64,000 nucleotides of DNA from an uncultured Rhizobium sp. (GTDB taxonomy: Bacteria > Pseudomonadota > Alphaproteobacteria > Rickettsiales > UBA1997). Every line of letters begins with the position of its first letter. Positions within the stretch are counted from its first letter, which is position 1. The stretch lies in contig CAYUHG010000004.1 in NCBI GenBank assembly GCA_964444545.1, forward strand, positions 4,021 through 68,020. The letters run 5' to 3'. A program made the position numbers and the translations under genes. Under the pieces are notes generated by a model, which did not search any database, was not told the origin of the DNA, and worked only from the letters and a program-made list of their open reading frames with translations. Below, one piece after another: positions 5,068-32,204 of this stretch.

Positions 5068-6384
5068 ATGTTCTTCGATCCTCTGCTTTTAGCGCGTATT
5101 CAGTTCGCGTTTACGATTAGTTTTCACATCATTTTTCCCACTTTCACCATTGGTCTGGCAGGATATCTAACCTGCGTTGAAGCACTTTATCTCAAAACCA
5201 AAGACAAAACCTACAAAGAAATCTACAAATTCTGGGTTAAAATTTTCGCGATTATTTTCGGCATGGGCGTGGTTTCTGGAGTGGTGTTATCCTACGAAAT
5301 CGGCACTAATTGGTCGGGATTTTCACAACGTTTAGGCAATGTTTTAGGGCCATTGTTGGGCATGGAAGTGTTGACTGCCTTCTTTCTCGAAGCTTCTTTT
5401 TTAGGAATCATGCTTTTTGGTTGGAATCGTGTTTCGCCAAAAATTCATTTCTTCTCAACCTTGATGGTGGCGATTGGCACTTTGATGTCAGCATTCTGGG
5501 TAATATCTGCTAATAGCTGGATGCAAACTCCGTCTAATTTTTTGTCTTATAACATCACTTTTTATTCTACCGATTGGTTTAAAACGATTTTTAATCCGTC
5601 ATTTCTTTATCGCTTATCCCACATGGTGGTGGCGTCTTATTTGACTTGTGCTTTCGTGGTTTGCGGAGTTTCAGCATGGTTTTTGTCGAAGAAGAAAAAT
5701 ACCGAACATGCGCGTGTAATGTTCAAAATGGCGCTGGCTTTCATTGTGATTTTTATTCCGCTGCAAATTTTTATCGGTGATCTTCACGGTTTAAATACTC
5801 TCAAATATCAGCCGATGAAAGTGGCGGCGATGGAAGGAATTTGGGAAGATGAAGTTGGTGCACCGCTTACACTTTTCGGTATTCCTGATCAAGAAAGCGA
5901 AAGCACAAAATACGCCATTAAAATTCCGAAGTTGGCGAGTTTGATTTTAAAACACGATGCCAACGCAAAAATTTACGGTTTGAAATCAGCGCCGAAAGAA
6001 GATCGCCCGCCAGTTGCGCCAGTTTTCTTCAGCTTCCGCGTGATGGTGGCAATCGGCATGTTGATGTTAGCAACTGCTGTGATTGCTGTTTTTTTGATGT
6101 TTCGTAAAAAACTTTTTACCACCAAATGGTTTCAAAAATGGTGTATGTTGATGACGCCGAGTGGATTTATCGCGGTGCTTGCCGGTTGGTTTGTCACTGA
6201 AATTGGTCGTCAACCTTACGTGGTTTACGGTTTTGTGCGCACGGCTGATGTGGTTTCAAAAGGAATTGTCGCAGAAAAAATATTATTCTCGCTGACAGCT
6301 TTTGCTGTGACTTATTTCATAATTTTCGGCGCCGCAACTTACTACATTTTGCGTTTGATTGCGAAGGGTGTGCAGAAGTTGTAG
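5068..6384 (+). CDS. cydA: Cytochrome bd-type quinol oxidase subunit I, short Q-loop (CIO-like)
   Basis: 438-aa polytopic membrane protein. It has the conserved N-terminus ARIQFAFTISFHIIFPTFTIGLA and the motifs GWFVTEIGRQPYVV and MAAMEG.WE. Confidence 0.88.
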   Translation: MFFDPLLLARIQFAFTISFHIIFPTFTIGLAGYLTCVEALYLKTKDKTYKEIYKFWVKIFAIIFGMGVVSGVVLSYEIGTNWSGFSQRLGNVLGPLLGMEVLTAFFLEASFLGIMLFGWNRVSPKIHFFSTLMVAIGTLMSAFWVISANSWMQTPSNFLSYNITFYSTDWFKTIFNPSFLYRLSHMVVASYLTCAFVVCGVSAWFLSKKKNTEHARVMFKMALAFIVIFIPLQIFIGDLHGLNTLKYQPMKVAAMEGIWEDEVGAPLTLFGIPDQESESTKYAIKIPKLASLILKHDANAKIYGLKSAPKEDRPPVAPVFFSFRVMVAIGMLMLATAVIAVFLMFRKKLFTTKWFQKWCMLMTPSGFIAVLAGWFVTEIGRQPYVVYGFVRTADVVSKGIVAEKILFSLTAFAVTYFIIFGAATYYILRLIAKGVQKL

Positions 6385-6403
6385 TAACAAAATTGTCATC
6401 CTG

Positions 6404-6513
6404 AGCGTAGCGAAGGATCTCGTGAGCCGAGAGGAATTTCACGTAAAATCACTCTCGACTTACGAGATCCTTCGCTGCGCTCAGGATGACAAAAATAAAG
6501 TTCAGGATGACAA
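6404..6513. repeat. Family B palindromic element with a duplicated tail, lying between subunit I and II genes
   Basis: tgtcatcctgagcgtagcgaaggatctcgtga-loop-tacgagatccttcgctgcgctcaggatgaca plus the tail aaaataaagttcaggatgacaa. Confidence 0.9.
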
Positions 6514-6537
6514 TTCTAATTAACTAAAATTTTCCTT

Positions 6538-7566
6538 ATGTTCGACCTCTCCAACATGTTTGATCTCTCAGCTTACATCAACCTACCGTTGGCGTTTGTT
6601 GCGATCTTAGCCTTAGCAGTTTTCCTCTACGTTTTACTTGATGGCTTCGATCTTGGCGTTGGCATCTTGTTCCCTTTCGCACCTTCCAAAGAATGTCGCG
6701 ACAAAATGATGAACTCAATCACACCTTTTTGGGACGGTAACGAAACTTGGTTAGTTTTAGGAGGGATGGGTTTGTTCGCCGCTTTTCCAGTCGCTTACAC
6801 AATCATCATTCCGGCCTTTTACATTCCTATTATTATGATGCTTTTAGGCCTGATTTTTCGCGGGGTAGCGATTGAATTTCGTTCGAAAGCTGAAACTCCG
6901 CTAGAGCAAAAAATCTGGGATTATTCTTTTCATTTCGGATCTCTAATCGCCGCTTTTTCTCAAGGCGTAATGTTGGGATCGGTAGTGCAGGGTTTTTATT
7001 GCAACAACGCCACGTGCAACATCTGGTACAGCTTCTTCTCTTTCATGGTTGGAATTGCTCTAGTATTTGGTTACGCTCTTTTAGGAAGTACTTGGTTGAT
7101 TTTGAAAACTCACGGAAGAACTCAAGATTGGGCGCGCAAAATCACCAAATATATTGTGGCCTTCGTGGTATTTTTTATCTTAATGGTAAGCGTCTGGACG
7201 CCATTTTTAAACGAACAAATTTACGCCAGATGGTTTTCTAAACCGAATATCTTTTACCTTGCGCCGATTCCTCTTCTGACCTTGGCAACTTTGATTTTCC
7301 TGATTCGCAGCCTGAAAGCACAAAAAGAAAAGACACCATTTTGCCTAACAATTGTGCTGTTTATTTTATGTTATTTCGGAATTGCGGTGACGTTATTTCC
7401 TTACATCGTTCCTTATCAAGTTCCTTACCAAAACATGGCTGCAGCACCGCAGGCACTATCGTTTTTATTTGTTGGAATGGCCGTAACTTTGCCAGTAATT
7501 TTAGCTTACACTTTCTATTCTTATCGCGTTTTTCGTGGCAAATCTTCGCACGAAAAAATGTACTAA
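6538..7566 (+). CDS. cydB: Cytochrome bd-type quinol oxidase subunit II (CIO-like)
   Basis: 342-aa membrane protein with the CydB signature LDGFDLGVGILFPF...FWDGNETWLVLGG. It sits downstream of subunit I. Confidence 0.88.
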   Translation: MFDLSNMFDLSAYINLPLAFVAILALAVFLYVLLDGFDLGVGILFPFAPSKECRDKMMNSITPFWDGNETWLVLGGMGLFAAFPVAYTIIIPAFYIPIIMMLLGLIFRGVAIEFRSKAETPLEQKIWDYSFHFGSLIAAFSQGVMLGSVVQGFYCNNATCNIWYSFFSFMVGIALVFGYALLGSTWLILKTHGRTQDWARKITKYIVAFVVFFILMVSVWTPFLNEQIYARWFSKPNIFYLAPIPLLTLATLIFLIRSLKAQKEKTPFCLTIVLFILCYFGIAVTLFPYIVPYQVPYQNMAAAPQALSFLFVGMAVTLPVILAYTFYSYRVFRGKSSHEKMY

Positions 7567-10714: not shown

Positions 10715-11488
10715 ATGACAAAAATCTCTGCCGTAATTGTTGCGCACAACGAGGAGAAAAAAATTGCTGAATGCCTAAAAAGTCTCTCTTTCGTTGATGA
10801 AATCGTTGTAGTGCTCGATAAATGCAGCGACAGAACCAAAGAAATTGTTTTGCAATTCACCGATAAAACTATCGAAGGTTCTTGGGCTATCGAAGGGATG
10901 CGTCGCAATGTTGCTGTAAATGCCGCAACTGGTGATTGGATTTTAGAAATGGACGCTGATGAAAGAATTTCTGAAGTTTTGGCCGAAGAAATTAAACAAG
11001 CAGTTGCTAACTCTGAGCCTTGTGCTTTCGTGATTCCAATCGCAAATTATATTGGTAAACGCTACGTCAGATATGGTTGGCTTCGAACTCTAGGTGTTTT
11101 GAGTCGTCAAACCATGCATTACAAAGGTTTGAAAAAATATAACGAAGACAAGGAAATTCATCCAACTGCCAAATTAGATGGTAAGATAAAATATCTAACC
11201 AACCCAATTATTCATTTGGTTGATGATGATATTGCTGACTTACTTAATCGTTTTAATCGTTACACTAATTGGCGCGCTGGTGATATGATTCGAACTGGCA
11301 AAACCAAAATTTCTTTAACCAAAGGAATGGTCACTTTTTTTTATAGAATGATCAAATCTTTCATCGGAAAAAAAGGCTACAAAGAAGGTCGTTTAGGATT
11401 CTTAATTGCAGTTCTGGCCGGTCTTTATCCAATGGTTTCTTATCTTAAGGCGACAGAAAAAATGCGTCGATCTGACCTAAAATTATGA
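10715..11488 (+). CDS. Family 2 glycosyltransferase (LPS core-type)
   Basis: ISAVIVAHNEEKKIAECLKSL.FVDEIVVVLDKCSDRT plus a DADE motif. The ATG at 10715 has an upstream AAGGA. Confidence 0.8.
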   Translation: MTKISAVIVAHNEEKKIAECLKSLSFVDEIVVVLDKCSDRTKEIVLQFTDKTIEGSWAIEGMRRNVAVNAATGDWILEMDADERISEVLAEEIKQAVANSEPCAFVIPIANYIGKRYVRYGWLRTLGVLSRQTMHYKGLKKYNEDKEIHPTAKLDGKIKYLTNPIIHLVDDDIADLLNRFNRYTNWRAGDMIRTGKTKISLTKGMVTFFYRMIKSFIGKKGYKEGRLGFLIAVLAGLYPMVSYLKATEKMRRSDLKL

Positions 11489-12567
11489 AGATTGTAAATA
11501 TCATTTTAACCTCACAAAACGGCGGTGCTGAGCAATCTTTTTGTGATTATCTCGCAGTTTTGAAAAACTTAGGTCATGAAGTTTTGGCAGTTGTAAAAGA
11601 TGATGCTCCTTACGTAAATCAAATTGAAAAGCTGGGAATTTCAGTAAAAAAAATCTCCAACAATCTTGGTGATCACGACATTTTTGCTGTAAATAATTTG
11701 CATAAAATTTTGCAGGAATTTGGCGCAAACCTCGTAATTGCTCATGTCGGCAGATCGGTAGTTTTGGCGAAAAGATCAATTAAAAAAATTTCTGATCGTA
11801 AAGTTTTTTTAATCGCGGTGAATCACAGCATGAACGTCAAACGCTCGATTGGTGCTGATTTAATCTTTTCGGTGAATCGCGAAATTTTCCATCGCACCGT
11901 TGATTTTGGCCAGCCGGAAGAATCTACTTTTGTGATTTCTAATGCGATCGATTTGACTGACGCCATCAATAATGCGCCGCGAGTAAATTTACAAAAACAA
12001 GATGTTATAACTTTGGGAATGATGGGGCGAATCGACGAATTTAAAGGCTTCGATCATTTAATTCGTGCGATTGCACTTTTGGAAAAAATGGTGCTAGAAA
12101 AAAATCTCAAACACAAATTTATCCTTAAAATTGCTGGAACAGGGCCAAATGAAAGAATTCTGCGTGAATTGACGAAAGTTCTAAAAGTGGAAGATAAAGT
12201 TGAATTTTGCGGTTGGGTTTCTGACAAAAAATCTTTTTTCCAAAGCATCGATATTTTTTGTAGCGCTTCCGACAACGAGACTTTTGGCCTTGTGCTGCTT
12301 GAGGCGATGAAATATCGCAAACCAATTATTGCTACCGACACCGACGGTTCAAAAGAAGTTTTACGCAACAAAGTTGATGGTTTGATCATTGCGCTTAATC
12401 CAATTGAAAATATCGAGCAACGCTTTGCTGATAATATCTTAGATTTGGTTGAACATCCGCAATTATTCGACACTTTAGTCGAAAATTCCTTCCTGCGTTT
12501 AAAGGATAAATTTTCTTACCAAATGCTCGAAACCAGAATGAAAGACATTATTGGTGTAGCGAAGTAG
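11485..12567 (+). CDS. Family 4 (GT-B) glycosyltransferase
   Basis: 360 aa with the E-X7-E region ETFGLVLLEAMKYRKPIIATDTDGSKEVL. There is a 4-nt overlap with the preceding GT2 gene. Confidence 0.8.
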   Translation: MKIVNIILTSQNGGAEQSFCDYLAVLKNLGHEVLAVVKDDAPYVNQIEKLGISVKKISNNLGDHDIFAVNNLHKILQEFGANLVIAHVGRSVVLAKRSIKKISDRKVFLIAVNHSMNVKRSIGADLIFSVNREIFHRTVDFGQPEESTFVISNAIDLTDAINNAPRVNLQKQDVITLGMMGRIDEFKGFDHLIRAIALLEKMVLEKNLKHKFILKIAGTGPNERILRELTKVLKVEDKVEFCGWVSDKKSFFQSIDIFCSASDNETFGLVLLEAMKYRKPIIATDTDGSKEVLRNKVDGLIIALNPIENIEQRFADNILDLVEHPQLFDTLVENSFLRLKDKFSYQMLETRMKDIIGVAK

Positions 12568-12571
12568 TGTA

Positions 12572-12613
12572 AAACTGGATTGCCGCGTTACTTCGTTTCT
12601 CGCAATCCAGTTT
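12572..12613. terminator. Hairpin between convergent genes (putative bidirectional terminator)
   Basis: aaactggattgc - 18-nt loop - gcaatccagttt is a perfect 12-bp stem, followed by T-rich sequence. Confidence 0.5.
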
Positions 12614-12615
12614 CT

Positions 12616-15600
12616 TCAAGCAATAATACAACTTTGTTGCTGTACAGTCTTAGTGGTTTCCTTCACGAATGTCTTTTTAATAATTTCTACAACAGCTTGC
12701 GCCGATTCATTTTCGCGATTCGGATCTACATTTTCTGCCATTGTTAAATATTTGTTAGCAAAATGATCAACCGTTACATCTCGCAGAGCAGATGATTCTC
12801 TGCTTCTAGTGATGCTTAGCGGCGATTCAATGTAAGGTTGTGACTCTGTGAGATCTCGTTTTTCGCAGATGGAACGCAGATCAAATTCGGCGATTAATTC
12901 TTTCAACATTTTTGGATTACTGCTTGTGATTGCTTCTTCAAAAAGTTGTTTCACGAAAGTTCCGATCTCGCCATTTTTAATTTCTTTCATCTTAGCCACA
13001 GCTGCTTTGCTTTCAGATTCTAGAGATTTTTTTAGTAAAGTATGACGTATTTCTGGTGATAAATTTCTGATTCTCTCAATCGCCAAATTCTCAATAAAAC
13101 TTTCGGTTAAAACTGCTTTATTGTTTTCTGGTCTAGTTAACTCTGCTACGGCGCTTTGAATGGTGTGATCTGAGAGCAAATCTTGTCTGTTAAATATCGC
13201 GGCCAAAGCTTTGGGATGGTGATGTCTGATTGCTAAAGTTGCTGCATCAGTTTCTACGCCATCTTCGATTGCCACAAGATTTGGATTGGCACCTTTTTGC
13301 ATTAAAAATTCAGCCATGGCAGCGTAGCCATTTTTAGAAATTGCGTAGTATAATGGTGATCTGTTGTTTTGATCGAAGGTGTTGATGTTGTCGGATAGTC
13401 GATATTCAGGATTAGCACGTAAAAAAGTTTTAAGAGTTTTTTCGCCATATTTTTCACAGATTTCGTAAATATTTTGGTTGGCAAAAGCTTGCCGTCTTTC
13501 TTCCGATGTTTTGTTTAAAACTTCGATCATTTGTGGATGAGTTCCATTCAAATAAGTTTTGAAAGACTCAGTAATAGCGAAGTCTTCTTGATCTGCTACT
13601 GCATCAAAAACTCGCTCTAATTCTTCGTCGTTTAGATCTCTTAAACTAAGTAAAAATTCAAAAGTTCCGGTGTGTCTACCTTTGATCGCAGTTGTTAAAT
13701 GTCGTGAGTGATTTCTGTTAAAATCCGCGCCATTGTTGATCAAAAATTCGATGTTGCCAGTGTAGGCATTTCCCTCGATGGCAAGAGTTAGTGCCGATTT
13801 AGTTTTGCCATCACGATCAACAAAAGTTTCTTGAATAAGTTCTTTCGCTACTTCTTCGCCGTATTTGTTTTTTATGGCTTCCAAATAAGGCGCTAAAGTT
13901 GCAGTACCTTGAGTTTTGCAGGCAATCGCAAAAACATTGGGAGTATTTTTTGGATGTTTGCGTGGGTCAAATCCAGCATTAATAAACATTTCAAAAGTTT
14001 TAACTAACTCATGATTAACTGCTAAAACTAAAGCCGGAGAATGGTCTTCCCATTTCTGTAAAAATTTATCGATTAGTGGACCACGCTGTTTTTTAACGGC
14101 TTTTAGATCAAGCGGTTCTTTTTTAGTTAAGATTTCGTTGAGCATCGCATCTGTTGTAGCGTCATTACTTCTGATGCAATAGCTGATATTGCTAAGCAAA
14201 ATGTCATCATCACCTTTGTCAAAACCTGCTGTTTTTAAATATTTTGAGAGCTCGGCTTTTTCTTTACGAGCATCTTCTGGTAAGGATCTGTCAGGTTGTT
14301 TTAACAGATAATCAACCAAAGTTATATCATCACGATATCGTAAAAAACTTTTGGCTAATTTACTGAAAGCTCGTCCATGAACCAAACGATCTTTCGTTAA
14401 CATGTGATCCATTTCATCTTGGGTTGGCAGCGGAATATTTTTTTGCACCATCAAATCAAAAGTGTGCGATATGTCAGGATCTGGTGCTATTGTATGGTCA
14501 AAAACCATTGTCATTAGCAGGTCGGGACGATTGCTTAAATCTCCACTGTTCTTTACTATTTCATCAACCAACACGATAGCAGAATGGCTGATTACTGCTG
14601 AAGTTAGTGAATAGAGAAGTGATCGTGATTTTAATTCTGCTGATTCTGCAGAAGTTGGATTGTTAGGATTTTGAACAGGATAAACTGGTAAAGTACCTTC
14701 GTTTCTACATAGTTCGGTGTCTTCACTAATAAATGATCGAATAATTTCGATTTCATGTGATGCTAGATCAGGTGATCTTTGAAAAGTACGAGAGCTTTCA
14801 GCAATTATTTCGTAGGCTTCTTCAATTCTTCGCGAAAGAGGGTGTTGATAATTTCCTTCTCGATCTTTTTGCCAGATTTCTTCCAATTGATCCATTCTAG
14901 TTCCTAAAATCCTATCCGAAATAACTTCGAATATTCGATCTTGGTAAAAGTTGGCATCTTCAGAAATTGTTGGTGCGATGATCTCGTATAAATCTTTTAC
15001 TTCGCCATTAGTTTTTCCGAAAAATTGTGATAAATCGACATGATTAGTTGATGTATCATCGTGATTTGATTGTTCGGTTAATTCATCCGTTTCGCTCTCA
15101 ACATCTATCCAAATACGATCTTGGAGTTTGGGAAAATATCCTCCCAAATATTCTTCAGCAAAGTGTTCGATAACGGCAGCTTCTTTTGCAATATGTTGAT
15201 TAGGAAAGTCTTTCTTTTGTGCAGAAAATATTGTGCTACCTTCTTTTATGACTGCGGTCAATTCAGCTTTTTGTTGCGGGTAAGAATCAATATTTTGTAA
15301 CCGTTCTTCAACAAGTTGCAGTATTCTGTCACTTAAGAAATCGGCAAATTGTAAATTATACTCGTTATTTGGTGTATTGTAAGTAAGAGCGAGAAGAGAA
15401 CGCAGCTTGGCAGTTGATTGATAAATTGAGGAATTACTTTCAATTAATGTTCTAACACCATTTAGCTCTGCAGCAGAATTTTTATCGAATTCGGGATAGC
15501 TGTATAAGCTACAACGTAAAATCTCCGAAATTTGTTCAAAAGTTGTATTCTCCAATGATGCGTCATTAACAATTTTTAATGTTTCTAGGGAATTTTCAGC

Positions 15601-16368
15601 TGTCCATCTAGAGCTTGCGATTAGTTCTTCGCCAAGATCAATATCTGCAGAAATAATCGCAGTTAAAGCTTGGCTCCTATCTTCTAAATTTGGCGCACTA
15701 AATTGTTCTAATAATTTTGATCCATAGTTTGGAAAGAGATGAGAATTTTTTGTAAAAAAATTTTGTAATAACTCGAGATTTTCTACAATCGCGTAGCTTA
15801 GTTGTTCATCAGTTGGGTTGCTAGATAATTTAGCATCTGGATTGATTGTAGTCTGTAGAAATTCTTTTATTTGGCGAATTTTAGCCGCTTTCGGAAGTTC
15901 TGAGTTTCCTTTAACAGTTTCAGTTATGAGGTTATAAAATCTCGTACCTTCAAGGGCTCTTGAAATAGAGAGTGTCGGAAGATTTTGTAAGTTATGTAAA
16001 CGCTGGATTGATTGAGATGCAGCTTTGTTGTGAGATACTGAAAACTGCTTTAAGCTGCTGTTAAGAGCATCAATTATTGTTCGATATTCACCACCTAATA
16101 TTATTCTAAAATCTTCTTCTGGATTGCTCAATTCTTGCAGAAGAAGAGCTAAATTTCGTGATTCTGGTCCTTTGAGATAATCAGTTTTTTCTGGAGCAGT
16201 TAGATAACCATTATTTTTTAAGAAATTTAATAGTTTATCTGGTTTGTGAGATTCTGGATCGCGAGGATTTTTGGCACTATGTCTCAGAATTATAGCCAGA
16301 TTCTTAATTTGAAAATCTTTGGGTTGTAGAGAAGATAAAATAGGTAAAACAGGTGAAACTGGTTTCAT
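12616..16368 (-). CDS. Large ankyrin-repeat protein with a C-terminal CaaX box; putative host-targeted effector
   Basis: 1250-aa ORF. ANK-like repeats lie at roughly 13150-14060, for example NNRSPLYYAISKNGYAAMAEFLMQKGANPN and LTLAIEGNAYTGNIEFLINNGADFN. The N-terminal ~750 aa have no motif I recognise. The protein ends ...QQSCIIA-stop. Confidence 0.85.
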   Translation of the reverse strand: MKPVSPVLPILSSLQPKDFQIKNLAIILRHSAKNPRDPESHKPDKLLNFLKNNGYLTAPEKTDYLKGPESRNLALLLQELSNPEEDFRIILGGEYRTIIDALNSSLKQFSVSHNKAASQSIQRLHNLQNLPTLSISRALEGTRFYNLITETVKGNSELPKAAKIRQIKEFLQTTINPDAKLSSNPTDEQLSYAIVENLELLQNFFTKNSHLFPNYGSKLLEQFSAPNLEDRSQALTAIISADIDLGEELIASSRWTAENSLETLKIVNDASLENTTFEQISEILRCSLYSYPEFDKNSAAELNGVRTLIESNSSIYQSTAKLRSLLALTYNTPNNEYNLQFADFLSDRILQLVEERLQNIDSYPQQKAELTAVIKEGSTIFSAQKKDFPNQHIAKEAAVIEHFAEEYLGGYFPKLQDRIWIDVESETDELTEQSNHDDTSTNHVDLSQFFGKTNGEVKDLYEIIAPTISEDANFYQDRIFEVISDRILGTRMDQLEEIWQKDREGNYQHPLSRRIEEAYEIIAESSRTFQRSPDLASHEIEIIRSFISEDTELCRNEGTLPVYPVQNPNNPTSAESAELKSRSLLYSLTSAVISHSAIVLVDEIVKNSGDLSNRPDLLMTMVFDHTIAPDPDISHTFDLMVQKNIPLPTQDEMDHMLTKDRLVHGRAFSKLAKSFLRYRDDITLVDYLLKQPDRSLPEDARKEKAELSKYLKTAGFDKGDDDILLSNISYCIRSNDATTDAMLNEILTKKEPLDLKAVKKQRGPLIDKFLQKWEDHSPALVLAVNHELVKTFEMFINAGFDPRKHPKNTPNVFAIACKTQGTATLAPYLEAIKNKYGEEVAKELIQETFVDRDGKTKSALTLAIEGNAYTGNIEFLINNGADFNRNHSRHLTTAIKGRHTGTFEFLLSLRDLNDEELERVFDAVADQEDFAITESFKTYLNGTHPQMIEVLNKTSEERRQAFANQNIYEICEKYGEKTLKTFLRANPEYRLSDNINTFDQNNRSPLYYAISKNGYAAMAEFLMQKGANPNLVAIEDGVETDAATLAIRHHHPKALAAIFNRQDLLSDHTIQSAVAELTRPENNKAVLTESFIENLAIERIRNLSPEIRHTLLKKSLESESKAAVAKMKEIKNGEIGTFVKQLFEEAITSSNPKMLKELIAEFDLRSICEKRDLTESQPYIESPLSITRSRESSALRDVTVDHFANKYLTMAENVDPNRENESAQAVVEIIKKTFVKETTKTVQQQSCIIA

Positions 16369-16557
16369 ATTTTGTAGACTTTGTTTTTAGTGCTCTCGGC
16401 TAATATTTGGCACTTTTACTTAGTCAACTTATTTGAGAAAAAATTTATCTTGGTAACAACCACAAGTAGTTTTTAAGGTTTTAAATTGTTGCATTAGCAA
16501 TCGAGTGCAAAACTACTTCTTGCTAATTTTCTCACGCTCTTAAAAAATCCTCCTCAA

Positions 16558-16645
16558 GGAAATAGTGTGGGCGGTTTGCTCATTAAACGGGTCAGGTTCG
16601 AAAGAAAGCAGCTCATAGTGCCACAGATCGGGTCATGCTATTTCC
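16558..16645 (+). ncRNA. ffs: Signal recognition particle RNA (4.5S RNA)
   Basis: The domain IV core gggtcaggttcgaaagaaagcagc matches the conserved GGUCAGGUCCGGAAGGAAGCAGC. The closing helix ggaaatag...ctatttcc is present. The gene is immediately upstream of dnaX, which is conserved synteny. The exact ends are uncertain by a few nt. Confidence 0.8.
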
Positions 16646-16685
16646 GCAAAATCTCGCCTTCTAATTTCTCAGTATTTCCAAGATA

Positions 16686-17990
16686 ATGACACAAAACTCT
16701 TACCTTGTACTTGCTCGCAAATATCGTCCGCAGAATTTCGATGAGCTTGTCGGTCAGGAAGTTTTGGTGACAACTCTCAGCAACGCGATCAAAAATAATA
16801 AACTGCATCACGCCTATGTTCTCACCGGAATTCGTGGCGTAGGAAAAACCACAACAGCGCGAATTATTGCTAAAACTATCAACTGCTTAAATCCTAATTC
16901 TGGCGCAGAAATTAAAGCTTGTGGAATTTGTGATAACTGCGTTGCGATCAGTGCTTCCAAGCATCAAGACGTTATTGAGATTGATGCGGCAAGTCGTACC
17001 GGTGTTGACGATATCCGCGAAATTATCGATTCCATCGCCTACGCTCCAGTAATGGCGAAGTACAAAATCTACATCATCGATGAAGTGCACATGCTTTCAA
17101 ATAGTGCATTCAATGCGCTTTTGAAAACTTTAGAAGAACCACCAGCTCACGTAAAATTTATTTTTGCCACAACTGAAATCAGAAAAGTTCCGATCACAAT
17201 TTTGTCGCGCTGTCAGCGTTTTGATTTGCGTCGTTTGGATGAATCGGAAATTGCGCTGCACTTAAAAAATATTCTCAAAAAAGAAAACCTCGAAGCTGAC
17301 GAGCAAGCTTTGGAATTGATTGCCAAAATGTCGGAAGGTTCGGTTCGTGATTCACTTTCAATGCTCGACCAAGCTTTGTCGAGCAATAATCATCAGCAAT
17401 TTTTGCCTTCAGATGTTGTCGAAAAAATGCTTGGACTTAACGACAAAGCTAAAGTTATCGAGCTTTTTGAAAGCTTGTTGATTGGTGATTTTACTGCCTC
17501 TCTGAATAAGTTCGCACAGTTTTATTCATATTCTTCTGACGTGGCGCAATTAATTGCCGACTTAATGGAAATTGTTGCCAAAACCACTTCCGTTAAATTG
17601 GTCAAAGACTACAAACTTGATGGATATTCTAAATTTCAGCAGGAAAAAATATCAGCGATTGCTGCAAAAATTTCACTCGCTGCATTGGCGCGAATTTGGC
17701 AAATGTTGCTGAAAGGTAACTCGGAAGTTAATTTTTCTAACTCGCCAAAAATGGCTTTCGAAATGCTGTTAGTGCGTATTTGTCACATGATTGCTTTGCC
17801 AGATTTGAAAGAAGTTTTGCTTGATTTGAATCAGTCGCAAAATTCTTCACCAAATGTAGTCGAAAAAATTGCGCCAATAGCAAAGATTCCCAATCCTGTT
17901 CCCGCTGAGAAAATCGGCGACACAAAAGAAATTAGCGACGAAGTTGTAAATGAAATTTTACGCAACTTCGAAGGCGCAAAAATAGTTTAA
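16686..17990 (+). CDS. dnaX: DNA polymerase III subunit gamma/tau (short form)
   Basis: LARKYRPQNFDELVGQE......L.NAI..NKLHHAYVLTGIRGVGKTTTARIIAK, with a Cys cluster (C.NC) and an SRC-like SRCQRF. Confidence 0.92.
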   Translation: MTQNSYLVLARKYRPQNFDELVGQEVLVTTLSNAIKNNKLHHAYVLTGIRGVGKTTTARIIAKTINCLNPNSGAEIKACGICDNCVAISASKHQDVIEIDAASRTGVDDIREIIDSIAYAPVMAKYKIYIIDEVHMLSNSAFNALLKTLEEPPAHVKFIFATTEIRKVPITILSRCQRFDLRRLDESEIALHLKNILKKENLEADEQALELIAKMSEGSVRDSLSMLDQALSSNNHQQFLPSDVVEKMLGLNDKAKVIELFESLLIGDFTASLNKFAQFYSYSSDVAQLIADLMEIVAKTTSVKLVKDYKLDGYSKFQQEKISAIAAKISLAALARIWQMLLKGNSEVNFSNSPKMAFEMLLVRICHMIALPDLKEVLLDLNQSQNSSPNVVEKIAPIAKIPNPVPAEKIGDTKEISDEVVNEILRNFEGAKIV

Positions 17991-22445: not shown

Positions 22446-23792
22446 ATGAAAAAAGTTAACATTATTGGCGCAGGTCTTGCTGGATCTGAAGCGGCTTGGC
22501 AATTAGCTTCACGTGGTATTGAGGTTGAAGTTTTCGAAATGCGCAACCAATCGCGCAAAACCTTCGCTCATCGTACCGACCATTTCGCCGAGTTAGTTTG
22601 CTCAAATTCACTTAGAAGTGACGACGTAAAAACGGCAGTTGGTTTGTTGCATCAAGAAATGCGCAATTTGAATTCTTTGATTATGCGTTCTGCTGACGCG
22701 AATTCTGTTCCAGCTGGATCGGCTTTGGCTGTTGATCGCGAAGGATTTTCAAAATTTATCGAAAACGAATTACTAGCGACTAAAAAAGTAAAAATTTCGC
22801 GTACTGAAATTTCAGAATTGCCGACTGAATCAAACGAAACTTGGATTGTCGCAACTGGCCCACTGACTTCTGACGCACTCAGCCAATCGATTTTAAAAAA
22901 TTCTGGCGAAGAACATTTGGCATTTTTTGACGCTATTGCTCCAATCATTTACAAAGATTCAATCGACTTTTCTAAAGCTTGGTTTCAGTCGCGCTATGAC
23001 AAAGGCAACGGTACTGATTACATCAACTGTCCGCTGACTCGCGAGCAATATTACGATTTTGTTGATGAACTTATTCGTGCTGAAAAAACTGAGTTCAAAG
23101 AATGGGAAAAAGATACGCCGTATTTTGACGGTTGTTTGCCAATTGAAGTAATGGCCGAGCGCGGAGTCGACACTTTGCGTCATGGGCCGATGAAGCCAAT
23201 CGGATTAACTAATCCGCATTTCCCGAAATCGCCGGAAGGAACAAAAAATAAAGATCGTCCAGAAAAAGCTTACGCCATTGTTCAACTGCGCCAAGACAAT
23301 AAAATAGGCACTTTGTATAATATGGTCGGTTTCCAAACTAAGATGAAATATGGCGAACAGCAACGCATTTTGAAAAAAATTCCTGGTCTTGAGAATGCTG
23401 ATTTCGCCCGTCTTGGCGGCATCCATCGCAACACTTTTATCAATTCACCAAAACTTTTGGATCAATTTTTACGTTTCAAAAAATCGCCAAATATTTTGTT
23501 TGCCGGTCAAGTTACTGGAGTTGAAGGTTACGTTGAATCAGCTTCTATGGGTCTTCTGGCGGGAATTTTTGTCGCGAGTGATTTTTCCGTTTCTGCACCA
23601 AATGCCAAAACTGCAATTGGATCATTGTTAAATCATATTACTGCTGGTCATGAAGGACTTGATTTTCAGCCGATGAATGTAAATTTCGGTTTGTTCGAAA
23701 ATTTGGAAGAAAAAACCAAAAAAACTGATCGCAAAGAAGCTTACTCGCAAAGGGCTTTGAATGAATTAGAAATATGGAGAAAAAAATTATGA
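22446..23792 (+). CDS. trmFO: Methylenetetrahydrofolate--tRNA-(uracil-5-)-methyltransferase
   Basis: 448 aa with the FAD-binding N-terminus [20 protein letters not shown]. The length and overall pattern fit TrmFO/Gid. Confidence 0.88.
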
Positions 23793-24487
23793 AAAAAATT
23801 GCCACCTTATTTTTGTTAATTGCTTTGAGTTCTTGTAGCAAAAGTTGGAATTATGAGGATGGAAGTAGCGGTCCAAAACATTGGGGCGATCGCGAGGAAA
23901 ATAAGTTTTGTAAAATTGGCTATAATCAATCGCCAATCGATATTACCGCAGAATTTAACAAAGGTGATCTAGAGTTTTTTTACACCAAATCGGATGTTGA
24001 AAAAAATCGCAAAAATCATGTTCTGCAAGTTGAGTTCGACAGTCGCGATTATGTGATGCGTGGTAAAAAAAAATATCTCGTTAGACGTTTTGAATTTCAT
24101 CACCCAAGCGAGCATTTAGTTAAAGGAAAGTCGCATTCCATGGAGATGCAAATTTATCACAAAAGTGAAGATGAACAATGGTTGACAGTGACAATTTTCT
24201 TGGAAGTTGGCAAAGAAAATCCTGATTTTAAACAGGTAATTGATGTGATGAATTCGAACAGAAAAGATCTAAAAATTGATCTTTCAAATATCGTAAAAGC
24301 AAAAGACCAAACTTTTTTTTATGATGGATCTTTAACAGTGCCACCTTGCCGTGAAGGGATAAAATGGTATGTAATGAAAACACCAGTTGAGATTTCAAAA
24401 GAGCAGATGAATCAACTAATCAAGCTGGGAATTTTTGTGAAATCAAACGCCCGTCCGGTGCAAAAATTTCATCCGGAGAAATATTAG
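23789..24487 (+). CDS. Alpha-class carbonic anhydrase, lipoprotein signal
   Basis: Lipobox LIALSSC. CA motifs are W.Y....GP..W, QSPIDI, FHHPSEH and MEMQIYH. ATG 23789 overlaps the trmFO stop (ATGA) and has GGAG 9 nt upstream. An alternative start is at 23774. Confidence 0.85.
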
Positions 24488-26025: not shown

Positions 26026-27171
26026 TTAGTATAAAAATTTCGAATCTTTTTCGATGGTTTTGTCGTTAACTTTGCCGCGCAAAACATAGAAAACCCAAGA
26101 AGTGTAAGCCAAAATGATCGGTACAAAAATCAAGGCAGCGATGAACATCACAATTAAAGTGAAGTGACTGCTTGATGAATCCCAAATCATCAAAGAAGAA
26201 TTCGGATCTAAACTTGATGGCAAAATGAACGGGAACAAAGTCAAACCAACTGTGGAAATGATGCCAAAAATTGCAGTTGAATGAGCGATGAAAGCTTTGC
26301 CGAAGTTTTTAGTACGGACAAACACTAGAGTTAAAAATTCACCCAAAAAACCAAGAGCAGGGGCGATTAACATCCATTTATGTTCGCTGTAATTATCATT
26401 CCAGCCGCCAATTTCGCGGATTACTTTTTTGTTTAGCGGATTTGATTCGCCCATTGTTCCGGCGAAATCGACTAATTTGTAAGACTCAAGTGAGTTCACA
26501 AAAAGTGCGCCGAGAGCAAAAAGTGCCATGATTAAAATCGGTGAAAAATCTAAGAAACGTAAAGTGCGTTTCAAAATTTTGCCTTCGGTTTTAATGGCCA
26601 AGAAACAAGCGCCGTGAGTTGTTAGCATGATAACGCAAAACACGCCGCAGAACAAAGTGAAAGGAGAAAATAAATCAAAGAAGCCGATTTTATTTTCGAT
26701 AATCATGAAGTCGTTAAAGCTGAAAGCGACACCTTGAAGCACGTTGCCAATTGCTACGCCGAAAACCAAAGATGGAACGAATCCAGACAAGAACAAACAG
26801 AAGTCCCAAGTTTTGCGCCAAGTTTTGTTTTGAATTTTGCTGCGATAATCAAAGCCAACAGGGCGTAAAATTAGCGTGAACAAAACCAATAACATGGCGA
26901 AGTAAAAGCCAGAAAAGCTGACGGCATAAACGTAAGGCCAAGCAGCGAAAATTGCGCCACCGCCCAAGATCAACCAAACTTGGTTGCCGTCCCAAACTGG
27001 GCCGACTGAGTTTAAAACGACGCGACGTTCGATGTCTTTTTTGGCGACAAAAGGCAATAAAGTTGCCACGCCAAGATCGAAGCCGTCCATGATGGCAAAG
27101 CCAATCAACAAAACGCCAAGTAAAACCCACCAAACAATACGTAAAACTTCGTAATTAAAAAATTCTGACAT
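26026..27171 (-). CDS. cydB: Cytochrome bd-I ubiquinol oxidase subunit II
   Basis: 381 aa with MDGFDLGV..LLPF and VWDGNQVWLILGGGAIFAAWP. There is a 1-nt overlap with cydA. Confidence 0.92.
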   Translation of the reverse strand: MSEFFNYEVLRIVWWVLLGVLLIGFAIMDGFDLGVATLLPFVAKKDIERRVVLNSVGPVWDGNQVWLILGGGAIFAAWPYVYAVSFSGFYFAMLLVLFTLILRPVGFDYRSKIQNKTWRKTWDFCLFLSGFVPSLVFGVAIGNVLQGVAFSFNDFMIIENKIGFFDLFSPFTLFCGVFCVIMLTTHGACFLAIKTEGKILKRTLRFLDFSPILIMALFALGALFVNSLESYKLVDFAGTMGESNPLNKKVIREIGGWNDNYSEHKWMLIAPALGFLGEFLTLVFVRTKNFGKAFIAHSTAIFGIISTVGLTLFPFILPSSLDPNSSLMIWDSSSSHFTLIVMFIAALIFVPIILAYTSWVFYVLRGKVNDKTIEKDSKFLY

Positions 27172-28709
27172 TAGTGATTTCCTCCTAAAACTTTTTCTGG
27201 ACCCATTTTGGCGAATTTGATCATCAAATAGAGATCAACTACCAAAAGTGAGCTGTAGAGAACAACAAATCCGATCAAGCTTGATAAAACTTGAGCGTGT
27301 GAAACTGAAGAAATGCCAAGGAAAGTTGGTAAAATTCCTTCAATTACCCAAGGTTGACGACCACATTCGGCAACAACCCAACCAACTTCGGCAGCAATCC
27401 AAGGCAGTGGTAATGACCACAAACAAATTTTGAGCAACCAAGTTTTATCGAAATTACGTTTGATGTTCATGTGGTAAAAAGCTGCGGCAAAAAGCACGAT
27501 AAAAAATATTCCCAGACCAACCATGACGCGGAAAGCGAAGAATAAAGGCGCAACGCGAGGTGCAGTGTCGGCAGCGGCTTTTTGGATTTCTTCGGCTGAA
27601 GCATTTTCAATGTCATCGCGATATTTTTTCAAAAGCAGCGCATAGCCAATATCTTGGAAATTTTCGCTCAAATAAGCTTTGTCGGCTTGAGGATTTTGGC
27701 TGGTTTTGTTGCGCAGATTTTTCAAAACCAAATATTGTGGAATACCGTTTTTGATGCGTTCTTCCGATTTTGCGACTAACTCTTTAATTCCCGGAATTTC
27801 TTTGTGAGTTGAACGAGTGGCAATCAAACCCAAAGCGTAAGGAATTTTAATTTCATATTCGTTGGTTTGTTTTTCCTGATTAGGAATAGCAAAAAGTGTT
27901 AAGTCAGCAGGCGCTTTTTCAGTTTCCCACATGCCTTCAATGGCAGCGAGTTTCATTTTTTGATTTTCGCCCGCAGCGTAACCGCTTTCATCACCCAAAA
28001 CTACAACTGAAAGTGCAGCCATTAAACCGAATGCTGAAGCAACAATCACCGAACGACGTGCAACTTCGATGTTGGTTTTTTTCAATAAATAATAGCAGCT
28101 AATTGCCAAAACGAACATTGCACCAGTAACATATCCTGCGCTGATCGTGTGTACAAATTTTGATTGAGCAACGTCGTTGAAAAAGATTTTTTGGAAGGAA
28201 TCCAATTCCATACGCATTGTTTCAGCGTTGAACTTTGCTCCAATTGGATGTTGCATCCAGCCGTTGGCAATCAAGATCCATAAAGCGGAAAGGTTGGTTC
28301 CAATCGCCATCAACCAAGTGACGAGTAAATGTTTAGCTTTCGACATTTTGTCCCAGCCGAACAGGAAAAGTCCGACGAAAGTTGATTCCAGGAAAAACGC
28401 CATCAAACCTTCAATTGCTAAAGGCACGCCGAAAATGTCGCCGACATAATGCGAATAATAAGCCCAGTTGGTGCCGAACTGAAATTCCATGGTAATCCCA
28501 GTTGCTACACCCATGGCGAAATTGATGGCAAAAAGTTTGCCCCAAAAACGCGTCATGTCGCGCCATATTTGTTTTCCGGTCATGACGTAAACGCTTTCCA
28601 TAATTCCCAAAATTACTGCCAGCCCAAGCGTCAGTGGCACAAACAAAAAGTGATAAATTGCAGTTGCGGCAAATTGTAAGCGGGAAATTTCGACGAGTCC
28701 GAGATCCAT
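27171..28709 (-). CDS. cydA: Cytochrome bd-I ubiquinol oxidase subunit I (long Q-loop)
   Basis: 512 aa with LSRLQFAATAIYHFLFVPLTLGL, KLAAIEGMWET and GWVVAECGRQPWVI. Confidence 0.92.
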   Translation of the reverse strand: MDLGLVEISRLQFAATAIYHFLFVPLTLGLAVILGIMESVYVMTGKQIWRDMTRFWGKLFAINFAMGVATGITMEFQFGTNWAYYSHYVGDIFGVPLAIEGLMAFFLESTFVGLFLFGWDKMSKAKHLLVTWLMAIGTNLSALWILIANGWMQHPIGAKFNAETMRMELDSFQKIFFNDVAQSKFVHTISAGYVTGAMFVLAISCYYLLKKTNIEVARRSVIVASAFGLMAALSVVVLGDESGYAAGENQKMKLAAIEGMWETEKAPADLTLFAIPNQEKQTNEYEIKIPYALGLIATRSTHKEIPGIKELVAKSEERIKNGIPQYLVLKNLRNKTSQNPQADKAYLSENFQDIGYALLLKKYRDDIENASAEEIQKAAADTAPRVAPLFFAFRVMVGLGIFFIVLFAAAFYHMNIKRNFDKTWLLKICLWSLPLPWIAAEVGWVVAECGRQPWVIEGILPTFLGISSVSHAQVLSSLIGFVVLYSSLLVVDLYLMIKFAKMGPEKVLGGNH

Positions 28710-31418: not shown

Positions 31419-32204
31419 ATGAGAAATTTTTCCAAAATATTTTCGGCGATTTTTATTATTATCATCGCTTTTTGCGGACAAAGTTTTGCCGCCGAAAATG
31501 AAAAATGGAATAGCGAAGAAGGCTTAAAAAGATTAGAAAGAAGTCAGGCAAAAAATGATTTTTATCAGCTGGTAAATTTTTACCAACCGCAGGTCAATCC
31601 GCTTTATTGTTCGGTTGCTACTGGTGTGATTTTGTTAAATGCGACAAGTGATCGCGAAAAAATTCCTAGCCAAAAAGAAAATCAAGTAAAGCGTCCGAAA
31701 GGTGCGGGTGGTGGAATTGCTGAATTTCACTCTTATTCCCAGCAGAGTTTTTTGAATGAAAAAACTGACAATATTAAAAAGCGTCAAATCATACAACTCA
31801 AAGCTCCAGCGCGTAAAAATGGTAAAGAAATTTATGATCCAGGAATGTCTATGGGTGATTTTTCGAAAGTTTTAAATCGTGTTTATGGTTTTCGTGTTGA
31901 AGAAAATCACGTAGCAAAAAATGGTGAAAATTCGCGACAAAAATTTCGTGAAGATTTGAAAAAATATTTAGTCGATAGCGATCATTTTGTGGTAGTGAAT
32001 TTTGATGGAAAAATTGTTGGAAATGGCACGAGAGGTCACTTTTCGCCAGTTGCGGCTTATGATGAAGTCAGTGATTCAATTTTAGTTCTTGATGTCGCGC
32101 TGCACAAAACTGGTTGGTATTGGGTGGATTTATCTAAACTTTTTGAAGCGATAAACACTGAGGATGGAGATACTTATCGAGGGTATCTGGTGGTTAAAAA
32201 ATAA
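31419..32204 (+). CDS. Phytochelatin synthase-like (peptidase C83) protein with a signal peptide
   Basis: Signal peptide ...SFA-AEN. The Cys motif is QVNPLYCSVATGVILLN. The His and Asp motifs are RGHFSPVAAYDEVSDSILVLDVA. This resembles prokaryotic half-PCS proteins of the Nostoc alr0975 type. Confidence 0.72.
   Translation: MRNFSKIFSAIFIIIIAFCGQSFAAENEKWNSEEGLKRLERSQAKNDFYQLVNFYQPQVNPLYCSVATGVILLNATSDREKIPSQKENQVKRPKGAGGGIAEFHSYSQQSFLNEKTDNIKKRQIIQLKAPARKNGKEIYDPGMSMGDFSKVLNRVYGFRVEENHVAKNGENSRQKFREDLKKYLVDSDHFVVVNFDGKIVGNGTRGHFSPVAAYDEVSDSILVLDVALHKTGWYWVDLSKLFEAINTEDGDTYRGYLVVKK

Follow-up and report, generated by a model that had tools for sequence, protein, structure and literature searches.

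Legionella AnkB, LseA and other effectors of the type IV secretion system (T4SS) are prenylated by the host (PMC7542358), and in AnkB the terminal box is lipidated by host farnesyltransferase, protease and methyltransferase, which anchors the protein to host membranes (PMC7542358). This CaaX box is accepted as a predictor of T4SS effectors in alpha- and gamma-proteobacteria (S4TE, PMC3814349), and the ankyrin-repeat (ANK) proteins of Rickettsiales, such as Anaplasma AnkA, Rickettsia RARP-2 and the Orientia Anks, are delivered, or thought to be delivered, into host cells and are lineage-specific and fast-evolving (PMC9352585). Here we analyse a 64,000-nucleotide stretch of contig CAYUHG010000004.1 (hereafter the window), which encodes on its minus strand, at positions 12616–16368, a 1250-aa ANK protein ending in a CaaX box, Cys1247-Ile-Ile-Ala1250. 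Because distant relatives of this ANK/CaaX protein keep the lipid-attachment signal at their tips, the bacteria probably inject it into a eukaryotic host, which would lipidate the protein and anchor it to a membrane. To our knowledge, CaaX prenylation is a reaction of eukaryotes only; we know of no bacterial system that reads a C-terminal C-a-a-X, and of no Rickettsiales Ank effector with such a box. Further CaaX-box effectors of the Dot/Icm system are reportedly found among the 'Pel' proteins of Ivanov et al. 2010.

Terminal motif of the protein family

An exhaustive HMMER search with residues 1–790 of the window protein against 1.84 billion protein representatives returned 18 homologues at 28–38% identity, all matching from residue ~504 on, and alignment extended the family homology from residue ~505 to the C terminus. 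The members share one architecture, consisting of a helical N-domain, an ANK region, a helical C-region and a variable tail, and their C termini fall in the same alignment column as the end of the window protein. An exact C-terminal C-a-a-X, at the same position as the farnesyltransferase-type box of the window copy (12619–12630, minus strand), closes 12 of the 17 complete family proteins, the window copy counted: CIIA (window), CAIM (twice), CVIS (twice), CRVM, CAIS, CTIA, CTIS, CSIS, CAMM and CAIA. Aligned from the C terminus, these boxes have Cys at −4 in all 12 cases, Ile at −2 in ten (Val and Met in one each) and only Ala, Ser or Met at −1, while pairwise identity does not exceed 0.23 at any position from −30 to −5. 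The alignment thus shows the terminal C-a-a-X as the sole conserved feature of the family tail. Such constraint at positions −4, −2 and −1 of an otherwise unconserved stretch is what selection on a short linear motif leaves behind, and the constraints are exactly those of farnesyltransferase.

Farnesyltransferase (FTase) takes an aliphatic a2 residue (Ile, Val, Leu or Met) and Ala, Ser, Met, Gln or Cys at X; Leu or Phe at X directs a protein to geranylgeranyltransferase I (GGTase-I). None of the 12 boxes has a GGTase-type X (Leu or Phe). A preliminary description of this DNA had read a CaaX box with X = Ala, favouring FTase, on an ANK protein. Both parts of that reading are borne out: the window copy has Ile at a2 and Ala at X, all 12 boxes are FTase-type, and the box recurs in 12 of the 17 complete homologues at the end of an unconserved tail that is predicted to be disordered. 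Its further proposal, a host-membrane-targeted effector, is supported computationally, with the corrections given below. That tail (residues 1237–1250; 12619–12660, minus strand) was delimited by AlphaFold2 (AF2) and the family tail alignment. In an AF2 model of residues 501–1250, built with the family alignment, its 14 residues (model residues 737–750) have a predicted local distance difference test score (pLDDT) below 50, so that the box is predicted to sit on an accessible, flexible C-terminal segment.

Nine of the 12 boxed members carry, within positions −20 to −5, one or two extra Cys 2–8 residues upstream of the box Cys (for example KCCPTSCAIM and DCCDISCAMM); the window copy and family member P0020, with a single Cys each, do not. 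The N-domain alignment was too diverse for pattern design, and a trimmed alignment gave two loci. Two further family copies share a slot between E2 acyltransferase and permease genes, one of them from the assembly series of the window source, and the copies in this slot retain the box with changed letters (CTIA, CAIA, CAMM).

The family was largely out of reach of other searches. In a word-indexed search of 5.8 billion proteins, the full protein matched only itself, the family profile matched three family entries and generic ANK proteins only, and the N-domain profile matched nothing; the 'orphan' result of this search is misleading because the index was swamped by ANK words. Scans of genome and metagenome contigs with the single protein yielded no relative. 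Among the 1.84 billion representatives we found no eukaryotic homologue beyond generic ANK matches. P0020 lies on contig JAGKWR010000006.1, which also bears a dnaX locus related to that of the window (L013, DnaX 81% identical), and a MiaB-like protein from the locus of P0003 and P0021 is 83% identical to one on the same contig. By these sequence links, family members appear to come from the same bacterial clade or close neighbours, and we regard the family as unannotated, previously undescribed and apparently confined to an uncultured lineage, with a novel N-domain.

Near P0020 (L074:9944-12382), ~1.8–3 kb downstream and past two genes, lie two eukaryote-like proteins, one with leucine-rich repeats (322 aa) and one with RRM_1, a eukaryotic RNA-recognition motif (81 aa). 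Two copies of family members look disrupted: an orthologue of P0021 at L071:2255-4795 has an in-frame stop (..TLQY*LKTRPDY..), and a copy of P0018 at L077:3883-6388 is split into overlapping open reading frames (ORFs) of 208 and 653 aa. Either could reflect pseudogenisation or assembly error. Near dnaX in more distant related loci of metagenome-assembled genomes (MAGs), two orphan proteins end in CaaX-like motifs after flexible tails: a 169-aa protein at L022:3179-3688, ending ...SAKSDRCCIVS and with a sub-threshold Pfam match (E = 0.008), and an 836-aa protein at L028:7250-9760, ending ...KATKNQKSAFCSLQ and without a significant Pfam match. These two ends hint that several unrelated proteins of this group of bacteria may finish in a CaaX motif.

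Proposed host prenylation and competing readings

We consider it reasonably probable that the CIIA end of the window protein is a functional host-prenylation motif, and hold with similar confidence that the protein would act as a secreted effector of scaffold type, encoded by an accessory gene of a Rickettsiales bacterium from freshwater. A eukaryotic host cell would receive the protein in its cytosol, most likely through the rvh T4SS, which the literature reports as conserved throughout Rickettsiales. Host FTase would then add a C15 farnesyl group to Cys1247, a host protease of the Rce1/Ste24 type would cut off -IIA and Icmt would methylate the new C terminus. The lipid tail would anchor the ANK solenoid at a host endomembrane or the plasma membrane, and the tethered solenoid would bind one or more host proteins through its repeat surfaces. 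In most paralogues, much as in H-Ras, N-Ras and SifA, palmitoylation of the one or two Cys lying 2–8 residues upstream of the box Cys would provide an additional membrane signal. For the family as a whole we lean, by a little, towards a set of host-lipidated, membrane-anchored effectors that combine a novel helical domain, an ANK solenoid, a farnesylation box and often palmitoylation-type Cys, and that would be restricted to Gamibacteraceae and freshwater relatives.

Several observations weigh against host prenylation. The closest complete members, P0021 (36% identity) and P0004, end without a Cys motif (the end of P0021, checked in the DNA, is a clean double stop with no hidden frame), and P0008 (..ECTTIC), P0014 and P0016 have non-canonical, Cys-containing ends. 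Conservation of the box in relatives, which the preliminary description had proposed as a check, is largely found, in 12 of 17 complete proteins, although not in the two closest ones; because these two lack it, the box appears not to be obligatory for the family. The 12 of 17 boxed proteins are, moreover, not phylogenetically independent. A tail of net charge +2 is all that the window copy offers by way of a second membrane signal, and Ras proteins with so weak a second signal bind endomembranes only weakly. The Lys residues near the end (KKTFVKETTK) that the preliminary description had counted in favour are present, but as a membrane signal they are weak: positions −19 to −5 have a net charge of only +2, and we rejected a K-Ras-like polybasic signal for this protein. 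Across the family the last 30 residues have net charges of −2 to +3, which is not diagnostic for a T4SS signal. No secretion-system (T4SS) genes were found in the 64-kb window, and the placement of its source in Gamibacteraceae comes from one marker (DnaX) and synteny, not phylogenomics. Gamibacteraceae lack an ATP/ADP translocase and keep most amino-acid biosynthesis pathways (Schön et al. 2022), and Deianiraea, the nearest characterised relative, is an extracellular symbiont. The missing translocase and the retained amino-acid pathways make an intracellular lifestyle less than certain.

The strongest competitor, which we nonetheless think unlikely, holds that the conserved terminal Cys motif works in or on the bacterium, through metal or Fe-S binding by C-x(3-8)-C, a disulfide tether, a secretion or sorting tag or an undescribed bacterial lipidation, and that its likeness to a CaaX box is coincidental. 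The final 12 residues of many members do contain two or three Cys, which could form a metal-binding or redox motif, non-CaaX tails containing Cys exist (ECTTIC, NCFR, CFRPMFYPRS), and host and secretion system are both putative. However, the constraint has precisely the form of the FTase rule (Cys strictly at −4, an aliphatic or beta-branched side chain at −2, nothing but Ala, Ser or Met at −1), which a metal site or disulfide would not need; the single Cys of the window copy and P0020 leaves no pair, and the tail is predicted to be disordered and is otherwise unconserved.

Slightly less probable again is a translocated ANK effector whose CIIA is unused or vestigial in the window copy, with targeting and function served by other parts of the protein, as in the CaaX-less paralogues. 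An unused four-residue motif at a disordered end should decay fast, as the residues upstream of it did, yet CIIA is intact in 24 of 24 contigs and in both alleles, and it is near ideal for FTase, like the CVIA of yeast a-factor and the CIIS of Ras2. A vestigial box would fit with P0021 and P0004, which keep the remaining architecture without it, with the absence from the window copy of the upstream Cys signal seen in nine members, and with the existence of Legionella AnkB alleles with and without CaaX (PMC7542358).

Reading frame and gene end

The gene runs from an ATG at 16366–16368 to a TGA at 12616–12618. Its last codons, given in the preliminary description as caa agt tgt att att gct tga (Q-S-C-I-I-A-stop) on the minus strand at 12616–12633, agree with the sequence, and the protein closes with ...TVQQQS-C-I-I-A-stop. 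TGA is a stop in this organism, because the housekeeping ORFs of the window are intact under translation table 11. The gene end is real, since a terminator-like hairpin (12570–12614, no strand assigned) stands directly 3' of the TGA. Recognised by fold computation, it has a perfect 13-bp stem and an 18-nt loop followed by TTTT, reaches −18.5 kcal/mol (z = −4.09; 0 of 200 shuffles equally stable) and occupies the 48-bp gap between the convergent ANK and glycosyltransferase genes. A consensus promoter/terminator scan gave background levels and overlooked it, its loop limit being 8 nt.

A box arising by chance, the protein being a common bacterial repeat protein that is not secreted and whose terminal Cys and two aliphatic residues are coincidental, is very improbable in our estimate. 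The motif was admittedly chosen by eye from the sequence, and a genome of ~1,500 genes should hold ~0.4–3 CaaX-like ends, as extrapolated from ORF rates in the clade. The window itself offers far fewer opportunities: across 428 ORFs of the clade, the rate of a strict C[VILM][VILM][ASMQCLF] tetrapeptide is 2.6e-4 per position, from which arithmetic gives ~0.01–0.02 strict CaaX ends among the C termini of the 46 window ORFs of at least 150 aa, and no window ORF of 100 aa or more other than that of the ANK protein has Cys at −4. Twelve of the 17 complete homologues, at 25–38% identity, end exactly in the motif with random flanking positions, and the family analysis leaves a chance origin strongly disfavoured. 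The 428 clade ORFs include two strict CaaX ends against 0.11 expected; we did not adopt a clade-wide enrichment, which is at most suggestive, one of the two being the window finding itself.

Domain architecture

Outside its tail, the window protein is predicted to be a soluble, all-helical solenoid, with a helical N-domain, ANK repeats and a helical C-region. The model of residues 501–1250 is all-helical (mean pLDDT 82.9, predicted template-modelling score (pTM) 0.76). The ANK repeats that the preliminary description had placed at ~13150–14060 are confirmed as a solenoid of residues ~765–1060 (13189–14076, minus strand), on the evidence of Pfam, a PDB sequence search, Foldseek and the extent of the AF2 ANK-like region. 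Pfam matches cover residues 831–913 and 994–1055 (window 13204–13878) and exceed the curated thresholds (Ank_2, 47.5 bits against a cut-off of 27.3 and E = 2.7e-12; Ank, 29.2 against 21.1; Ank_3, 26.0 against 22.3), and Pfam ANK was matched in 16 of 16 aligned family members. The PDB sequence search returned ANK proteins and DARPins only, and Foldseek of the 750-aa model against PDB returned only ANK solenoids (ankyrin-1, AnkB repeats, DARPins and Legionella AnkX).

Preceding the repeats is a family-specific, all-helical N-domain (residues ~505–752; 14113–14856, minus strand), delimited by HMMER matches over query residues 504–790, alignments and AF2. It carries the conserved motifs SLL..L, LS.R.DL, ISSDPDMS.TFDLL..KG.P.P and SR..SG.NA.KLA.SF and, modelled alone, reaches a pLDDT of 86.5 and a pTM of 0.85. 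Foldseek against PDB gave nothing below E = 0.1 for this domain, only a weak resemblance to ARM/PUF-like alpha-solenoids, and no Pfam or NCBIfam family matched it. Residues 1–504 (14857–16368, minus strand) form a lineage-specific N-terminal extension: the earliest HMMER match starts at residue 504, and the 1.84 billion representatives contain no homologue of it outside this organism. A helical module found at residues 454–530 (14779–15009) has a second copy inside the extension, at residues 299–383 (15220–15474; both minus strand). The duplication was revealed solely by the N-terminal module of P0021, which matches the window protein twice (second match, E = 6e-6), self-BLAST of the window protein being negative for an internal repeat. 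The preliminary description had found nothing recognisable in the N-terminal ~750 residues. That fails for residues ~505–752, a family-conserved helical domain, and stands in part for residues 1–504, a lineage-specific extension with a duplicated module.

Downstream of the repeats, a helical region conserved in the family (residues 1061–1236; 12661–13188, minus strand; alignment and AF2) includes a disordered linker at residues ~1171–1201. Pfam found no non-ANK domain, F-box included, in the window protein or any family member, and an NCBIfam scan of the window protein gave no match. The protein is acidic (net charge −44), with 7 Cys in 1250 aa, and we rejected a Sec-exported or membrane protein since it has neither a signal peptide nor a transmembrane segment. 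We propose no catalytic domain, because Foldseek returned only ANK solenoids and, for the N-domain, nothing below E = 0.1; the predicted build points to a repeat-based scaffold or adaptor that carries a lipid-anchor signal rather than to an enzyme.

Genomic context and source organism

The window, of ~39% GC, is an unexceptional piece of bacterial chromosome and carries leuS, two cytochrome bd operons, hisB, sodB, dnaX, yhdP, trmFO, xerC/D, uvrD, dxs, aroC, cysS, ftsK and other genes. An identical protein (P0002) occurs on 23 metagenome contigs, from several very large NCBI assemblies and Sequence Read Archive runs SRR10036024–SRR10036045 of lake samples, and a variant differing in 3 aa (P0001) on one contig; the two alleles differ by three synonymous and three non-synonymous changes. 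That the gene is eukaryotic DNA, brought in by contamination or a chimeric assembly and bearing an ordinary eukaryotic CaaX, is barely credible and effectively refuted by synteny: ANK plus CaaX is a eukaryote-like combination and the source assemblies are huge (>1 million contigs), but among the 23 contigs read, those shown derive from independent samples and have the gene at one constant position, with bacterial dnaX on one side and a bacterial glycosyltransferase gene on the other, it forms one unbroken ORF followed by a hairpin of the bacterial intrinsic terminator type, its relatives are flanked by bacterial genes in other loci and on MAG contigs, and the 1.84 billion representatives hold no eukaryotic homologue beyond generic ANK.

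The gene occupies a variable slot (12568–16685) between the glycosyltransferase gene GT4 (11485–12567) and dnaX (16686–17990). The neighbouring DnaX is 61–88% identical to DnaX of freshwater 'Rickettsiales bacterium' MAGs, and the order hisB-sodB-GT2-GT4-slot-dnaX-response regulator-yhdP is common to six related MAG loci. The slot is empty in four of these (L011–L014; ~250 bp between GT4 and dnaX), holds LysR and DabA/DabB-like genes in MAG UBA2645 (L015:5254-9734) and an unrelated 624-aa orphan in L033 (7938–9812). GC content at third codon positions (GC3) is 0.257 in the ANK gene versus 0.325–0.395 in six neighbouring housekeeping genes, which is consistent with recent acquisition or low expression. 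Given the variable slot and the lower GC3, we take the ANK/CaaX gene to be a lineage-specific accessory gene.

UBA2645 shares seven genes with the window, dnaX included: its DnaX is 82% identical, and hisB, sodB, GT2, GT4, the response regulator and yhdP are syntenic (66–91% identity). Since UBA2645 has been placed in 'Candidatus Gamibacteraceae' (Schön et al. 2022), we infer that the source organism belongs there too. This Rickettsiales family, represented by MAGs alone, has the Paramecium ectosymbiont Deianiraea as its sister group, belongs with the 'classical' host-associated Rickettsiales, has 16S hints of ciliate and Hydra association, and keeps 18 amino-acid pathways without an ATP/ADP translocase (Schön et al. 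2022). The biosynthetic genes of the window agree with that published description.

Other features of the window deserve mention. Two separate cytochrome bd oxidase operons (5068–7566 and 26026–28709), a eukaryotic-type (alpha) carbonic anhydrase gene (23774–24487) and a phytochelatin-synthase-like gene (31419–32204) make up a respiratory and metal-handling complement that is unusual for a Rickettsiales genome. A giant minus-strand ORF of 2670 aa (34830–42842) includes a 'PT repeat' tract of ~600 aa rich in Pro, Ser, Thr and Gln (Pfam PT, E = 1e-75), beyond which lies a hydrophobic, transmembrane-like segment; the ORF may encode a surface or adhesin-like protein. It explains a GC-skew spike at 40–42 kb, and Tandem Repeats Finder detected no DNA-level tandem repeat in it. 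Despite the gene density of the 64-kb window, ARAGORN found no tRNA genes in it and no Rfam family reached its gathering threshold.

Significance and comparison with known systems

Selection that maintains a CaaX box in a family of bacterial proteins marks these proteins as acting inside a eukaryotic cell, and the box can serve as a lifestyle marker because CaaX prenylation is, as far as we know, confined to eukaryotes. The conserved motif could thus be a useful, testable indicator of protein delivery by Gamibacteraceae into eukaryotic cells, and it provides a concrete effector candidate that can be tested without culturing the bacterium. If host prenylation is correct, the family would be direct molecular evidence that a MAG-only lineage injects proteins into eukaryotic cells, would settle the debated host-associated lifestyle of Gamibacteraceae and would extend host-prenylation mimicry from Legionella and Salmonella to Rickettsiales. 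How host association evolved in Rickettsiales is a matter of active debate (PMC9352585, PMC10847448), and these two papers, the main genomic ones on these bacteria, make no mention of prenylation motifs. The principle is known, this being a further case of the established strategy of AnkB-style host prenylation; what is new is the protein family and the lineage, which offer a credible instance of a known trick.

With Legionella pneumophila AnkB (Lpg2144/LegAU13), the window protein shares eukaryote-like ANK repeats and a C-terminal CaaX box, and the presence of the box varies among AnkB alleles and homologues (PMC7542358), as it does in the window family. In contrast to AnkB, the window family has no F-box and no homology to it beyond generic ANK (Pfam, PDB and profile searches). 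Legionella uses Dot/Icm, whereas the window organism, an alphaproteobacterium of the Rickettsiales, would have at most an rvh (VirB/D4-type) T4SS, and lipidation is reported for AnkB, whereas the window family is likened to it from sequence. AnkB is also far smaller than the 1250-aa window protein.

Salmonella SifA and the tails of H-Ras, N-Ras and RhoB resemble the nine family members that pair CaaX with an upstream Cys, an arrangement of prenylation plus S-acylation; the window copy differs in lacking that Cys, and there is no relationship in fold or sequence. The SifA motif, CLCCFL, is GGTase-type (X = Leu), whereas all boxes of the window family are FTase-type. The Rickettsiales Anks (Anaplasma AnkA, Rickettsia RARP-2 and those of Orientia) are likewise ANK-repeat proteins of this order, yet outside the repeats we detected no homology to them, with generic ANK matches only and no NCBIfam match. 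Orientia Anks carry F-box-like domains, which the window protein lacks. The eukaryotic FTase substrates lamin B (CAIM), yeast a-factor (CVIA) and yeast Ras2 (CIIS) are similar at the terminus itself, the family tetrapeptides (CIIA, CAIM, CVIS, CAIS, CTIA and others) being identical to these ends or one residue away. As only a four-residue linear motif is held in common, the likeness would be one of mimicry, not homology.

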